A stretch of 32,000 nucleotides of DNA from Vibrio vulnificus CMCP6 (GCF_000039765.1 NC_004459.3:1680001-1712000); one strand, 5' to 3'; counted from the stretch's first letter, positions 8,601 through 12,301 are shown. Notes: generated by a model from the sequence alone, not told the origin. A program made the numbers and translations.

Positions 8601-9163
8601 TAAGCACTGTATTTATTCAAATTTTATATGAAATCAGCAAAAAAAATGAAATTGAAAAGTGGCTATCTGAATCTACGTGGGGAAAGAGTAATGCTAAATG
8701 GAGCAAGGAGAAAGAGCTATTAGAGTACAAAAAAATAGCGTTGAAACCAATAGTAGAAATCAAAGAACAAGCTAGCGTGTTCCCTTATGGGATGGAAAAA
8801 ACAACACCAAGTAGTGAAGGTTATTATCATGCGTCAACTACCAAAATGGCTGTTAATAGCCCGTTGTGTCGCTATGTATGCCGATTTTACGTTCCAGATC
8901 CAGAGCAAGGCATTGTTCTGACCATATTAAATAATGCGATTTTTATTCAAAAAAGTGGAAAATGGGAGCAGGAAGAAGGCCAATATTTCTATGAGATAGC
9001 GATGGAAAGTCGTACTGGTTTACGAGTAAATGTGACTTATGCTAGTGATGAAAGTGATATATGTTATCTAGTTTCAGGAAAAGGGGAAGGGCAATGTTCA
9101 GTTTCTTTCAATGATGGACGAGAAGTGAATGGTGATACATATCAAATTATAGGGCGTAAATAA
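5621..9163 (+). CDS. Orphan T6SS effector: PAAR domain, S/T/P/Q-rich linker, MIX-motif region and C-terminal multi-TM (VasX/Tme-like, presumed membrane-disrupting) module
   Basis: The start is chosen at ATG 5621 (MSKPAATIGH..., a typical PAAR N-terminus) rather than the tracked 5543. There are two literal PAAR motifs (5741-5752 and 5831-5842). The MIX motifs are SIVPIR (6155-6172), LRDGWLYIY (6260-6286) and IAFSLIQWT (6380-6406). About five long hydrophobic helices lie between ~8080 and 8640. The stop overlaps the start of the next gene (TAATG at 9161-9165). Confidence 0.85.
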   Translation: MSKPAATIGHNHLCPKKTGKIPHVGGPITTGSSNVMINGVPAARKGDSMVCVGPPDSIKQGSSSVFINGKPAARMFDATNHGGVIIGGSPNVFIGDAGCYPDSQDSAVASSDSRPQSNEDKQVAPPTKQSNSLSNEPQASPSSTSHTPANGSSTSSAVDSNTVYPGLSTDQNREPKTFSIVPIRYAIDMERQTPESVLGRGPLSISTPYVLRQLRDGWLYIYDDLTQEITEYKVEGASLTGDANIYLEGTTLHIAFSLIQWTKRIVDTLKQDSSLRHRWMRRVVCIEGEQWHVGDELTLEHVSDMDTCPHDFIMSSVSLREPPKVDSGDEVESNPTADAIMSQLVTSKPTFSAGEWLGNAQGDVTLVVALDDVLSDVLDLTIPLNVPIIENLSITKDEDEFHKLEMARIARSLARVQVPESKWSSNINKSTYPYFEADLHAYFKEREADVTELVAKQQKQSYVSLNTKEHSTHGSKGLKILRERWDYVPDELDHKLWFERRKYVDEVNWKKLDRFSNEMESKLGEAETKIDLYMRELYSGLQGADVVDPMRYGIDIYTQEGMNHYIVLTHEIFTTMQLAVQNRERELKKLNEFLAGRNILSFAPYGGSESLSFAVTRELDNTESINLVPHYTNIVGAFDKLKDLMQHGTGRDAIWVRELTEEARAVLDILGKTLKGELSDYLNHLLLYIYPDRLSSPPLLFEIKRAIWWCRIKQEVPRFNDDYINGTQRFRKEFKQLVKELSDEYYKLDKHTIWPVRKYNQYKKLRTSLLEKLVEHPDLISIRADESFRQSRKALHARYMQLVGGKFTQASTAYSSVGGNAALTVLLNSINLNMLSGTLGDTGKGSDVHSKALQDVGIGLMWLISASGDLTKNLVGSYLSKSISDMKTKTVMEIASAKSIKIRGISANRIFVSALVTGAMFGAIASAWEIYKNNRLFLQSNNIYEKGLLLLISSSYLAQFGVYMAVYIRASILNIAVGNLLLPWMVTVGGWVAISTVFIQILYEISKKNEIEKWLSESTWGKSNAKWSKEKELLEYKKIALKPIVEIKEQASVFPYGMEKTTPSSEGYYHASTTKMAVNSPLCRYVCRFYVPDPEQGIVLTILNNAIFIQKSGKWEQEEGQYFYEIAMESRTGLRVNVTYASDESDICYLVSGKGEGQCSVSFNDGREVNGDTYQIIGRK

Positions 9164-9903
9164 TGTCGATTTTTTACTCATTGGATGAGCAGGCGATAAA
9201 GCAAGAGATTGCTTATAAAAAAGAAAGGCTCTCTACAGAAGATATATTATTTTCTTGGGTTTGTACGCCTAAGAGATTTTTTGTTGAGGAGGTTTTTGTT
9301 TTTTCTATGATTATATTTCCATCCTTAATTTTTTTCTTTTCAGCTTCAAGTTGGGATGGGGTATTTTTTGCGTTTTTTATTACTGTATTCATGATTTTGT
9401 TTGGACTCTATATGAGATTTACTGTTTTTCAACCTAAAACGTATTGTTATGAACTCACTAAAGTCGGTATTCGGTATACCATAGAAGAGAATGTACATGA
9501 GAACTTTTACAAGTTTTCTCGCGCTGGAGGTAAATTAGCGGCTTTTGTCAGTGTTATTGCGGTTATATTTTTAGGGCCACTTGCATTAGCGGGAGCGGGT
9601 GCGGGGTTACTTCACGCGAGAGCTATGTCTAATCATAGAAAAAGGACAGAATACGAGGAGTATATTATTCCGAATAGTTTTCGTGTTAGGTATCAACATA
9701 GTCGCCAGCAGGTCGCATTAAACCCTAGGTTTGAGTTGGAAATGCAGGAAATAGGAGTATGGGAGATGACATCACCTCCGGGTATACATATAGACAAATC
9801 TGATCTTTATAAGTTGTTTTATTATCTTAAAAAAGAGTTTGACGTGATTGATATAAAAGAGGTCAATAGCTTTAAAGAACTTAAACTTGAATATTTAAAT
9901 TAA
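9163..9903 (+). CDS. Presumed cognate immunity protein, copy A (3 predicted TM helices; modules n1-core-c1)
   Basis: 246 aa, translationally coupled to the effector stop. Hydrophobic segments are FVFSMIIFPSLIFFFSA, VFFAFFITVFMILFGLY and LAAFVSVIAVIFLGPLALAGAGAGLL. It is a paralog of the three following ORFs. The immunity role is inferred from position only. Confidence 0.7.
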   Translation: MSIFYSLDEQAIKQEIAYKKERLSTEDILFSWVCTPKRFFVEEVFVFSMIIFPSLIFFFSASSWDGVFFAFFITVFMILFGLYMRFTVFQPKTYCYELTKVGIRYTIEENVHENFYKFSRAGGKLAAFVSVIAVIFLGPLALAGAGAGLLHARAMSNHRKRTEYEEYIIPNSFRVRYQHSRQQVALNPRFELEMQEIGVWEMTSPPGIHIDKSDLYKLFYYLKKEFDVIDIKEVNSFKELKLEYLN

Positions 9904-9952
9904 ACGATATGTTTTTTATAGTCTACATTCCTCGGTCGGACTCTAGGTTTTT

Positions 9953-10731: not shown

Positions 10732-11496
10732 ATGGATTTTTACTCATTGGATGAGCAGGCGATAAAGCAAGAGATTGCTTATAAAAAAGAAAATCTTCCT
10801 ACAGAAGATATATTATTTTCTTGGGTTTGTACGCCTAAGAGATTGTTTGGTGAGGAAGTTCTAGTTTTTGGTATGATGATCATACCTTCGCTAATCGTTG
10901 CCTTATTAGTGCCACCAACTATTGAAGATTTTGTAGTGTGGTTTGGTATTACTGTAGTTATGGTTTTACTTGGCCTCTATTTGAGGTTTACTGAGTTTCA
11001 ACCTAAAACGTATTGTTATGAACTCACTAAGGTCGGTATTCGGTATACCATAGAAGAGAATGTACATGAGAACTTTTACAAGTTTTCTCGCGCTGGAGGT
11101 AAATTAGCGGCTTTTGTCAGTGTTATTGCGGTTATATTTTTAGGGCCACTTGCATTAGCGGGAGCGGGAGCGGGAGCGGGAGCGGGAGCGGGTGCGGGGT
11201 TACTTCACGCGAGAGCTATGTCTAATCATAGAAAAAGGACAGAATACGAGGAGTATATTATTCCGAATAGTTTTCGTGTTAGGTATCAACATAGTCGCCA
11301 GCAGGTCGCATTAAACCCTAGGTTTGAGTTGGAAATGCAGGAAATAGGAGTATGGGAGATGACATCACCTCCGGGTATACATATAGACAAATCTGATCTT
11401 TATAAGTTGTTTTATTATCTTAAAAAAGAGTTTGACGTGATTGATATAAAAGAAGTCAATAGCTTTAAAGAACTTAAACTTGAATATTTAAATTAA
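10732..11496 (+). CDS. Immunity-family paralog, copy C (modules n3-core-c1, with expanded Gly-Ala repeat)
   Basis: 254 aa. The C-terminal 95 aa are identical to copy A and the N-terminal half is near-identical to copy D. The 8 extra residues come from a GGAGCG repeat expansion. Confidence 0.7.
   Translation: MDFYSLDEQAIKQEIAYKKENLPTEDILFSWVCTPKRLFGEEVLVFGMMIIPSLIVALLVPPTIEDFVVWFGITVVMVLLGLYLRFTEFQPKTYCYELTKVGIRYTIEENVHENFYKFSRAGGKLAAFVSVIAVIFLGPLALAGAGAGAGAGAGAGLLHARAMSNHRKRTEYEEYIIPNSFRVRYQHSRQQVALNPRFELEMQEIGVWEMTSPPGIHIDKSDLYKLFYYLKKEFDVIDIKEVNSFKELKLEYLN
11161..11196 (+). repeat. In-frame hexanucleotide microsatellite: (GGAGCG)x5 plus GGTGCG
   Basis: Read directly from the sequence. Copies A and B have one GGAGCG plus GGTGCG at the same position, and copy D has GGAGCT GGAGCG. 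It encodes the poly(Gly-Ala) stretch at the end of predicted TM3. Confidence 0.95.
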
Positions 11497-11545
11497 ACGA
11501 TATGTTTTTTATAGTCTACATTCCTCGGTCGGATTCTAAGTTTTT

Positions 11546-12301
11546 ATGGACATGGATGAGATGGATTTTTACTCATTGGATGAGCAGGCGATAAAGCAAG
11601 AGATTGCTTATAAAAAAGAAAGACTCCCTATAGAAGATATATTATTTTCTTGGGTTTGTACGCCTAAGAGATTGTTTGGTGAGGAAGTTCTAGTTTTTGG
11701 TATGATGATCATACCTTCGCTAATCGTTGCCTTATTAGTGCCACCAACTATTGAAGATTTTGTAGTTTGGTTTGGTATTACTATTGTTATGGTTTTACTT
11801 GGTCTCTATTTGAGGTTTACTGAGTTTCAACCTAAAACGTATTGTTACGAACTCACTAAAGTCGGTATTCGGTATACAATAGAAGAGAATGTACATGAGA
11901 ACTTTTACAAGTTTTCTCGCGCTGGAGGTAAATTAGCGGCTTTTGTCAGTGTTATTGCGGTTATATTTTTAGGGCCACTTGCATTAGCGGGAGCTGGAGC
12001 GGGATTACTTCACGCGAGAGCTATGTCTAATCATAGGAAAAGAAAAGAATACGAAAGACATATTATGCCAGATAGTTTTCGGGTTAGATACCTTCGTGAA
12101 CGTCAACAGATTGCTTTTAATCCAAGATTTGAGAGAGAAATGCGTTCAATTGGTATATGGGAGTACTCATCACCACTGGATATTTATATAGATGAATCAT
12201 TTTTATATAAACTGTTTTATTATCTTAAAAAGGACTTTAATGTTATTGATATTAAAGATGCTACTGATTATATCGAACTAAAAGCAGATTTTTTAGACTA
12301 A
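11546..12301 (+). CDS. Immunity-family paralog, copy D (modules n3-core-c3)
   Basis: 251 aa as tracked, with an alternative start at ATG 11561 (MDFYSLDE). The N-terminal half is near-identical to copy C and the C-terminal domain is unique. Confidence 0.7.
   Translation: MDMDEMDFYSLDEQAIKQEIAYKKERLPIEDILFSWVCTPKRLFGEEVLVFGMMIIPSLIVALLVPPTIEDFVVWFGITIVMVLLGLYLRFTEFQPKTYCYELTKVGIRYTIEENVHENFYKFSRAGGKLAAFVSVIAVIFLGPLALAGAGAGLLHARAMSNHRKRKEYERHIMPDSFRVRYLRERQQIAFNPRFEREMRSIGIWEYSSPLDIYIDESFLYKLFYYLKKDFNVIDIKDATDYIELKADFLD

Follow-up and report, generated by a model that had tools for sequence, protein, structure and literature searches.

The immunity proteins of the pore-forming colicins (A-type and E1-type; Cai, Cbi and Cui/Cyi) are small inner-membrane proteins whose transmembrane helices recognise the hydrophobic or voltage-responsive helices of the toxin in the bilayer, specificity mapping to particular helices, and their genes are usually found as single copies on plasmids. 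Rhs and CDI orphan toxin-immunity cassettes and polyimmunity loci were reportedly described by Koskiniemi in 2014 and Poole in 2011. The T6SS effector VasX acts from the periplasmic side to depolarise the inner membrane, an attack countered by TsiV2 (PMC3857813). Kirchberger et al. in 2017 described orphan immunity arrays in V. cholerae, for which homologous recombination and HGT were invoked, and noted that some V. mimicus strains have two or three TsiV2-type genes; immunity genes were treated as whole units, duplication was argued against and intragenic chimeras were not described (PMC5361080). Most recently a study in mBio in 2026 of V. vulnificus VV1_1702 and VV1_1704 reported a PAAR-MIX_IV effector whose C terminus is colicin-like and, behind it, a 'permease', 'sometimes with multiple copies in series', for which an immunity role was proposed (PMC13348674). 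This is the same locus as the array considered here; cassette structure, recombination analysis, array haplotypes and effector-immunity covariation do not form part of that study.

The window analysed is a stretch of 32,000 nucleotides from V. vulnificus CMCP6, and the genes and other features of the effector/immunity island, with its borders, lie on its plus strand. The effector/immunity island is bordered on the left by the S15 leader and rpsO (5002-5334; Rfam RF00114, 96 bits; rpsO ORF 5065-5334) and on the right by pnp, encoding polynucleotide phosphorylase (12755-14932; recognised as an ORF and from the Pfam content of its orthologue), a placement found at 42/42 V. vulnificus loci. The sole mobile gene near the array is an unrelated IS4 transposase (3603-4925). 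The effector gene occupies 5621-9163 and encodes 1180 aa from MSKPAAT; the ORF at its longest begins at 5543, and the homologue in other strains is likewise called at 1180 aa. It is annotated as a PAAR + VasX_N (MIX / BTH_I2691-like) pore-forming T6SS effector from Pfam matches to PAAR_motif (7e-26) and VasX_N (1.4e-15, above its cut-off); the match to NCBIfam BTH_I2691_fam (1.7e-26, 93 bits) falls below the 150-bit cut-off. A cluster of hydrophobic helices lies at aa 910-1003, so that the VasX_N/MIX region and the C-terminal hydrophobic-helix cluster of a VasX-like effector are both present. Segment-wise comparison of six effector types defined two variable segments, e1 (aa ~868-917; 8221-8370), placed just N-terminal to the first hydrophobic helix and of type 'a' in the window, and e2 (aa ~918-1067; 8371-8820), which contains predicted transmembrane helices and is of type 'alpha'. 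An immunity gene lies immediately 3' of the effector in all effector-carrying loci, and in the window the start of the first, gene A, overlaps the effector stop (TAATG).

We consider it likely that this region is a poly-immunity array of a polymorphic VasX-like pore-forming T6SS effector, composed of recombining cassette genes, with A as the cognate gene and B, C and D as orphans. It is an orphan immunity array, a known kind of system, with a new and well-resolved variant of mechanism. As in V. cholerae VasX / TsiV2 (aux-2 A-type module), a VasX_N region is combined with C-terminal hydrophobic, colicin-like helices, and the immunity gene, whose relatives carry a Pfam TsiV2 hit, is directly downstream. 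The V. vulnificus effector differs in having its own N-terminal PAAR domain, in standing alone between rpsO and pnp without hcp, vgrG or adaptor genes, and in being followed by 1-7 tandem copies of an immunity gene made of reassorting cassettes. The V. cholerae orphan arrays likewise have several immunity genes behind a polymorphic effector, the orphans resembling the cognates of other strains (PMC5361080), but in V. vulnificus a sub-genic cassette is exchanged at a point mapped to the interior of a conserved core, and unequal crossover links the array haplotypes with one another. There is also a likeness to Rhs / CDI orphan cassettes and polyimmunity loci, in which specificities are stored in tandem downstream of a polymorphic toxin and modules are swapped by recombination through conserved sequence (PMC3482391). 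In Rhs / CDI, however, it is the toxin gene that carries the recombination handle, and CT-immunity pairs are exchanged as complete units, whereas here the handle is inside the immunity gene and the two halves of the immunity protein are reassorted. The products resemble colicin immunity proteins in being small membrane proteins, with helix-helix recognition suggested here only by covariation, and no sequence relationship to colicin immunity proteins was detected in PDB or Pfam.

Positions 9163-12301 hold four intact genes of the TsiV2 family (PF27447), followed by a stub of ~100 nt of a fifth. Gene A (H_A.C_A; 9163-9903; 246 aa), the presumed cognate, has 99-100% identity to the first gene of four other loci (L001-L004), and is divided into a hairpin module (9271-9447), a core (9448-9633) and a C cassette (9634-9900). 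The same modules are found at 10073-10249, 10250-10435 and 10436-10702 in orphan gene B (H_B.C_B; 9953-10705; 250 aa), at 10837-11016, 11017-11226 and 11227-11493 in the recombinant orphan gene C (H_CD.C_A; 10732-11496; 254 aa), and at 11666-11845, 11846-12031 and 12032-12298 in orphan gene D (H_CD.C_D; 11546-12301; 251 aa). Gene B may start at its third ATG (9968), and the MDMDEM leader may be a mere series of alternative in-frame start codons; public annotations give the same immunity genes as 245, 248 or 250 aa. The stub (12325-12423, detected by nhmmer; ORF 12329-12481, 50 aa) holds only the N box of a further family member, and occupies the pnp-proximal end of every complete array (model positions ~2-110 at all loci). 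The spacer sp1 occurs twice, between A and B (9904-9952) and between C and D (11497-11545), the copies differing at 2/49 nt; a sigma70-like motif, TTTAAA-17-TATAGT, is found at the first (9894-9922). Within the third hydrophobic stretch of gene C a (GCGGGA)-type hexamer encoding an Ala-Gly run is repeated seven times (11158-11199), against three times in A (9589-9606), B (10391-10408) and D (11987-12004). Among 101 copies of the gene 93 have three hexamers, five have two, one has four and two have seven. The start offsets of 1569 nt (A to C) and 1593 nt (B to D) differ by the 24 nt of the gene C expansion.

All 102 homologue clusters came from V. vulnificus and carry a precomputed PF27447 (TsiV2) hit, both P0001, which is 99% identical to A, and the 101 other full hits. 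An hmmscan of A, B and D against a Pfam set lacking the PF27447 model returned no family; TsiV2 membership of the window genes is accepted because near-identical proteins carry PF27447. Identity to distant members of the family is ~25-30%. The assignment of genes A-D to an immunity family is supported by the TsiV2 hits of their relatives and by their place directly behind the PAAR + VasX_N effector, and they would presumably function in immunity. Three hydrophobic stretches are predicted (aa ~40-62, 65-90 and 119-152), the loop between TM1 and TM2 being acidic and without K/R family-wide, and the proteins are predicted to be integral to the inner membrane. AF2 modelled the hairpin as two helices (pLDDT 70-81), while the AlphaFold model as a whole is unreliable, with a pLDDT of 48, so the topology is to be read as a prediction.

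The four proteins have in common the N box FYSLDE.AIKQEIAYKKE...LFSWVCTPKR and a central block that is identical in all of them but for a single C/S substitution and, in gene C, the AG expansion. There are three versions of the TM1-TM2 hairpin, one in A, one in B and one in C and D (1 aa apart), and three of the C-terminal domain of ~90 aa, those of B and D being distinct and those of A and C the same as protein, with 1 nt difference in ~290 nt. The initial annotation had described these shared and variable modules, the near-identical spacers and the offsets explained by the repeat expansion, and in all of this it was borne out. A and C show 1 mismatch in alignment columns 481-780 and 53 in columns 121-300, whereas C and D show 7 in columns 31-420 and ~80 in columns 511-780. 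The 45 informative sites partition perfectly by region, with 16/16 hairpin sites favouring AB|CD and 26/26 C-cassette sites favouring AC|BD (P<1e-4), and a PHI-like permutation test on the array genes also gave P<1e-4. Identical runs extend over 112 polymorphic sites between A and C and 63 between C and D (each P<1e-4); the longest between B and D covers 3 (P=0.77). Synonymous divergence (dS) rises from 0.03-0.42 in the core to 0.7-1.1 between hairpin types, and is saturated (>2) between C-cassette types. The array is a true mosaic with incongruent module trees, so that the pairwise alignment and module trees put forward as checks both upheld the mosaic reading.

Gene C is a recombinant. The crossover interval was placed in its core at 11032-11090 from discriminating mismatches, the final one against L004 being at 11031 and the first against L001 at 11091. 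In its 5' part gene C resembles the third gene of the A-B-D' array of L001, the sequence left of the junction having 6 mismatches to L001 in 1632 nt. In its 3' part it resembles the first gene of the A-D array of L004, as do the spacer and all that follows the rest of that array, with 0 mismatches to L004 over 1264 nt right of the junction; the downstream flank continues to be L004-like for ~3.6 kb more. Gene C and L004 gene A have identical C cassettes, from which those of the H_CD.C_A genes of other lineages differ by 7-10 nt. Exchange within the core, which the initial annotation had suggested, is located by this breakpoint. The sequences are compatible with either direction of events: a four-gene array may have formed from three- and two-gene arrays, or these by deletion from it. 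No recombinase or RT gene, of the kind that accompanies diversity-generating cassettes (shufflons, DGRs), was found in or adjoining the array, and since the exchange points are in ordinary homologous sequence the shuffling is best attributed to general homologous recombination.

In the mechanism we propose, every gene combines two conserved parts, namely the N box and a core encoding a beta-hairpin and a G-P/Ala-Gly hydrophobic stretch, with two cassettes that are ancient and have diverged strongly, one for the TM1-TM2 hairpin and one for the C-terminal domain. Because the conserved segments are almost identical in DNA, RecA-type homologous recombination could pair any two genes of the family, in or out of register, within the chromosome or with DNA acquired from another strain. 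The products would be reassorted cassettes (chimeras such as C), longer arrays and shorter arrays. The window array would represent one exchange, in which the third gene of an A-B-D' array was joined at the mapped interval to the leading gene of an A-D array, four hexamers having been added by slippage later than or simultaneously with the crossover. Gene A, overlapping the effector stop codon, would be the self-protecting cognate immunity gene, and B, C and D would be orphan paralogues, most likely guarding against the effector variants that other strains of V. vulnificus carry.

The comparison of 42 V. vulnificus loci revealed wide variation, with 1-7 immunity copies per array and all of the possible combinations of the main cassettes (H_A/H_B/H_CD x C_A/C_B/C_D; 9/9) occurring in the species. 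At one locus, L040, the exact effector of the window is accompanied by only one immunity gene, the A/D hybrid H_A.C_D, a product that core-mediated deletion would be expected to leave. Tandem paralogues lie behind one effector, the orphans are like the cognate genes of other strains, and arrays persist without an effector. Window gene D, for example, has the cassette combination of the first-position gene in strains with effector type IV (L019-L028).

In 7/7 haplotypes the e2 class of the effector goes with the hairpin class of the immunity gene in first position. Only ~480 nt separate e2 from the hairpin, however, both belong to one contiguous haplotype block and no breakpoint was seen between them, so simple linkage could also account for the covariation. 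The C domain need not match the effector (L040). Toxin specificity is probably determined for the most part by the TM hairpin, through a putative recognition of the membrane helices of the toxin in the bilayer, as in immunity to pore-forming colicins. H_B is the commonest hairpin class among orphans, and none of the 42 loci has an effector class matching it. The idea of a combinatorial set of immunity specificities is partly supported, by the cassette combinations and, with linkage possible, by the hairpin, the C domain not being tied to the effector.

Several other explanations have to be weighed against intragenic recombination. In the sequential displacement model of Kirchberger et al., orphans are the retained immunity genes of displaced modules, with no exchange between immunity genes. 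Such displacement is documented in V. cholerae (PMC5361080), effector toxin domains are polymorphic and swapped between strains, and the cassettes of an orphan are often combined as in a first-position gene of another strain; displacement probably does contribute to the building of arrays. In pure form it is unlikely, as it can make neither gene C, whose halves have different closest relatives and an intragenic junction, nor the L040 hybrid, and it leaves the occurrence of all 9 cassette combinations unexplained. The initial annotation had favoured duplication of a two-gene unit with subsequent unequal crossover or gene conversion within the core. Taken as a tandem duplication (A-B to A-B-A'-B') with later divergence and gene conversion, this would account for the C_A cassette, sp1 and MDMDEM occurring twice in that order with a period of 1569/1593 nt, and for the one hairpin common to C and D. 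The duplication requires additional events, the replacement of both duplicate hairpins and one C domain, and B and D are without extended identity beyond the leader. A simpler explanation of the window array is a junction, within the core, of two arrangements that other strains carry, A-B-D' (L001 type) and A-D (L004 type), and this single crossover recreates the array with no mismatches on the right side; the duplication is not needed and we regard it as very improbable.

That the orphans are non-functional relics, the mosaic a neutral by-product of repeat recombination and gene A alone of importance is a view to which we give distinctly little weight. Some decay does occur, since 15/94 orphans (~16%) are frameshifted, partial array deletions are frequent, and no strong promoter or SD signals were detected in the array, where promoter-like sites do not exceed the shuffled expectation. 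Against this, 79/94 orphans (84%) are intact, as are 35/36 first copies, while many strains retaining 3-7 intact immunity genes have an effector that is frameshifted or deleted (L005, L033, L039), and in four loci keeping 3-7 copies (the same three and L034) the effector is reduced to a stub. Together with dN/dS values below 1 in all modules, cassettes included, and ~0.05 in the core, this argues that the immunity genes are selected independently of the effector in cis. It is scarcely credible that the chimeric gene C and the gene order are artefacts of mis-assembled near-identical repeats. Many draft assemblies do break within the array (L007, L008, L014-L018, L031 and L032), and this demonstrates how difficult such repeats are for assembly. 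Over 3661 nt, however, the array region has 100% identity to a complete chromosome, CP037931.1 (L006), the contig being present in 3 samples, so the window array is not an assembly artefact, and independent assemblies repeatedly show these cassette combinations, set in differing arrays. Intragenic recombination among cassette genes is the reading we retain, and so understood the array is a clear and in part new illustration of the way in which bacteria diversify their protection from the toxins of rival strains.

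The four tandem TsiV2-family immunity genes, of which the first (A) is the presumed cognate and the others orphans, are all intact forward-strand ORFs: A (9163-9903, 246 aa), B (9953-10705, 250 aa), C (10732-11496, 254 aa) and D (11546-12301, 251 aa), with a short ORF of 50 aa on the same strand after gene D (12329-12481). Upstream on the same strand is an effector gene, 1180 aa long if counted from 5621, whose end overlaps the start codon of A (TAATG). The effector matches the PAAR motif and VasX_N models of Pfam and, weakly, the BTH_I2691 family of NCBIfam; its hydrophobic helices lie at aa 910-1003. 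The island is AT-rich (GC 33-39% vs 46-48% in the flanks) and is bordered by the S15 leader/rpsO on the left (5002-5334, forward strand) and pnp on the right (12755-14932, forward strand). An IS4-family transposase gene (Nterm_IS4 and DDE_Tnp_1, 3603-4925) lies between truB and the S15 leader/rpsO, upstream of both the rpsO leader and the effector promoter region; the truB-to-S15 leader interval is only ~150 nt at this point in two other V. vulnificus loci, L001 and L004. Homologues of gene A form 102 clusters, all from Vibrio vulnificus and all with a precomputed hit to Pfam PF27447, the family named TsiV2; in V. cholerae, TsiV2 confers immunity to VasX, a pore-forming effector (PMC3857813). 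A 2026 comparative-genomics paper described the same locus as an effector (VV1_1702) and a 'permease' (VV1_1704), the latter 'sometimes with multiple copies ... in series', reported its enrichment among clinical isolates and suggested an immunity role for the permease, the copies being left unanalysed (PMC13348674).

Each gene can be divided into an N box, a TM1-TM2 hairpin cassette, a core and a C-terminal cassette. The initial annotation had proposed that the N box and central block are common to all four proteins, which is seen in both protein and DNA alignments, and that the hairpin and the C-terminal domain each occur in three versions (A, B and C=D; A=C, B and D), which the alignments bear out; the cassette combinations are H_A.C_A in A, H_B.C_B in B, H_CD.C_A in C and H_CD.C_D in D. 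As described, the spacer between A and B is nearly the same as that between C and D (2/49 differences), and the 24-nt difference in offset is indeed a hexamer expansion in gene C (11158-11199, seven copies vs three). Within the hairpin cassette 16/16 parsimony-informative sites group C with D, and within the C cassette 26/26 group A with C, while a PHI-like permutation test (P<1e-4) and GENECONV-like run tests (P<1e-4 each) gave evidence of recombination. The module trees are therefore not congruent and the genes are mosaic. Synonymous divergence is 0.03-0.42 in the core and 0.05-0.2 in the N box, 0.7-1.1 between hairpin types and saturated (>2) between C-domain types, so the conserved parts are of recent origin or have been homogenised as DNA, beyond mere protein constraint. 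On these sequence distances the hairpin and C cassettes are ancient alleles.

Several smaller features recur along the array. The in-frame hexamer, (GCGGGA)n, encodes Ala-Gly inside the third hydrophobic stretch (9589-9606, 10391-10408, 11158-11199 and 11987-12004) and is present in 2, 3, 4 or 7 copies depending on the gene and the strain, seven copies being seen solely in gene C of the window array. The 'MDMDEM' leader (9953-9970 and 11546-11563) consists of three in-frame ATGs, and as public annotations of genes with this leader give 245, 248 or 250 aa, translation may in fact begin at the third ATG, which would leave the leader untranslated. Both copies of the spacer carry a sigma70-like TTTAAA-17-TATAGT (9894-9922, 11487-11515); promoter-like sites were no commoner across the whole region than in shuffled sequence. 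Terminator-like stem-loops recur in the N box (9251-9276, 10817-10842, 11646-11671) and in the core (9522-9540, 10324-10342, 11091-11109, 11920-11938), probably only because they fall in repeated conserved segments.

The array was compared with 41 V. vulnificus loci encoding family members, all of which sit between rpsO and pnp. Array length, which had been put forward as a comparison to make among strains, ranges from 1 to 7 full copies. Motif-anchored protein classification defined five hairpin and five C-domain classes; single-linkage clustering at 90% nucleotide level on a fast MAFFT alignment was dropped as its labels were inconsistent, the first gene of locus L040 being split from that of the window despite identity there. 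H_A, H_B and H_CD were each found paired with each of C_A, C_B and C_D (9/9 combinations), and earlier classifications on nucleotides give the same picture. In one divergent sub-lineage, which has a core of its own, the cassettes too are mostly particular to it, a pattern to be expected were the core the substrate for exchange. Locus L040 has a single immunity gene, an A/D hybrid, the product expected when an A-D array undergoes core-mediated deletion. H_B is the commonest hairpin class among orphan genes in the 42 loci (e.g. window gene B, 9953-10705); in none of the 42 does it occupy the first position beside an effector, and no matching class of the effector segment e2 (8371-8820 in the window) was sampled. 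In three loci (L036-L038) the first immunity gene is followed at ~6758-7483 by a gene of 233-241 aa without a TsiV2 Pfam hit and with no more than patchy nucleotide similarity to the family, possibly a member that has degenerated or diverged.

Copies are intact in 84% of orphans and 97% of first copies, and many strains whose arrays stay intact have lost the effector to a frameshift or a deletion. Immunity appears to be retained without the weapon. Deletion has cut the effector to a PAAR stub of 48-53 aa in L005, L033, L034 and L039, it is frameshifted in L009, L011, L012, L014-L018 and L041, and these strains still have 3-7 intact immunity copies. Every complete array closes with the same ~100-nt 5' stub beside pnp (12325-12481 in the window); the N box of this stub (MDFYSLDERAIKREIDYKNEEISKADV) is nearer the divergent H_div lineage than genes A-D.

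The origin of the window array can be traced through simpler arrays in other strains, A-B-D' (L001) and A-D (L004). Mis-assembly is argued against by the complete chromosome CP037931.1, which is 100% identical to the window array over 3661 nt. Up to 11031 the sequence matches L001, through the 3' end of B, the spacer and the 5' part of the third gene; from 11032 on it matches L004, through the core and C cassette of A, the spacer, D, the stub and pnp, the hexamer expansion being the sole difference. The first difference that discriminates against L001 is at 11091, the exchange is narrowed to 59 nt, and the flank remains L004-like for ~3.6 kb. Gene C and L004 gene A have identical C cassettes, whereas those of same-combination genes in other lineages are 7-10 nt away from gene C. 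One core exchange therefore reproduces the window array, and it would have joined the third gene of an A-B-D'-type array to the first gene of an A-D-type array. The opposite direction, in which core-mediated deletions of a four-gene array gave the simpler ones, is equally possible. The 24-nt Ala-Gly expansion was rejected as a mark of the crossover, lying 70-125 nt downstream of the mapped interval. Duplication of a two-gene unit, the origin first suggested, is not required, since a single core exchange between known array types suffices; the observation of the initial annotation is confirmed and its reading of the mosaic as core exchange supported, but the two-gene duplication is not supported.

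Three hydrophobic stretches are predicted in the proteins. The TM1-TM2 loop is short, acidic and K/R-free across distant family members, a K/R-rich segment follows the third stretch, and the third stretch has an invariant G-P at its middle as well as the Ala-Gly repeat. These features suggest an N-in topology with a periplasmic hairpin tip, the third stretch being possibly re-entrant with a cytoplasmic C domain. An AlphaFold2 model of protein A, built from an alignment of 42 V. vulnificus sequences, had a mean pLDDT of 48 and was usable for the TM hairpin only, and with no solved relative the topology stays an inference. PDB, NCBIfam and Rfam searches returned no informative match for the immunity genes. 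The family is small, 1.84 billion proteins containing 74 representatives at 50% identity, and when a diverse alignment served as the profile against a word-indexed protein database, nearly all hits were from V. vulnificus. Two scans of genome contigs found no arrays in other species, and the locus is apparently missing from the GTDB representative of V. vulnificus.

The effector is conserved outside two adjacent forward-strand segments, e1 (8221-8370), directly before the first hydrophobic helix, and e2 (8371-8820), which contains the hydrophobic helices. Together (8221-8820) they correspond to effector aa ~868-1067, the toxin domain, itself a two-segment mosaic. The effectors fall into six types (a.alpha, b.alpha, c.beta, b.beta, b'.gamma and d.delta), and combinations such as b.alpha and b.beta show that effector segments have been exchanged between strains. 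In 7/7 effector-immunity haplotypes e2 and the hairpin of the adjoining immunity gene are of matching classes (alpha with H_A, beta with H_CD, gamma with H_V, delta with H_div). Immunity to pore-forming colicins involves intramembrane helix-helix recognition, and the association fits recognition of this kind; e2 and the hairpin are, however, ~480 nt apart in one contiguous haplotype block, so linkage alone could yield it. A corresponding coupling of e1 to the C domain seemed perfect in the six effector types and was ruled out by L040, whose effector is identical to that of the window and whose only immunity C domain is C_D; such coupling is thus not obligatory. In type IV strains (L019-L028) the first-position gene combines the same cassettes as gene D of the window, a likeness that supports possible cross-protection by orphans. 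The combinatorial immunity specificities originally envisaged are therefore borne out in part, by the 9/9 combinations and by the hairpin tracking e2, but not for the C domain, which is untied to the effector.

It is established that T6SS loci recombine, swap effector C termini and contain orphan immunity arrays (PMC5361080, PMC8189183), and poly-immunity loci are likewise established (PMC3482391). Known T6SS orphan arrays are usually described as whole genes gained one by one, whereas in this family sub-genic cassettes reassort via a conserved core. When the literature was searched for immunity genes that are chimeric or mosaic in nature, only engineered chimeras turned up. What is new here is that a TsiV2-type immunity family has a sub-genic two-cassette architecture, together with a crossover that is mapped and with parental and derived array haplotypes all found in natural isolates. 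The TM hairpin is likely the specificity determinant of TsiV2-type proteins, and the natural chimeras, gene C and L040, are ready-made reagents for specificity mapping. It is doubtful that the array is a standing combinatorial repertoire in which core recombination keeps making new hairpin and C-domain combinations in a modular arms race with bipartite recognition. Under such a repertoire the hairpin would recognise the toxin TM helices and the C domain a putative second determinant, so that specificity would be assembled from parts, even ahead of meeting the matching toxin allele, and strains with a two-segment mosaic toxin would be locked in that arms race. Cassette exchange through the core itself provides a concrete mechanism for fast diversification of protection against pore-forming toxins.
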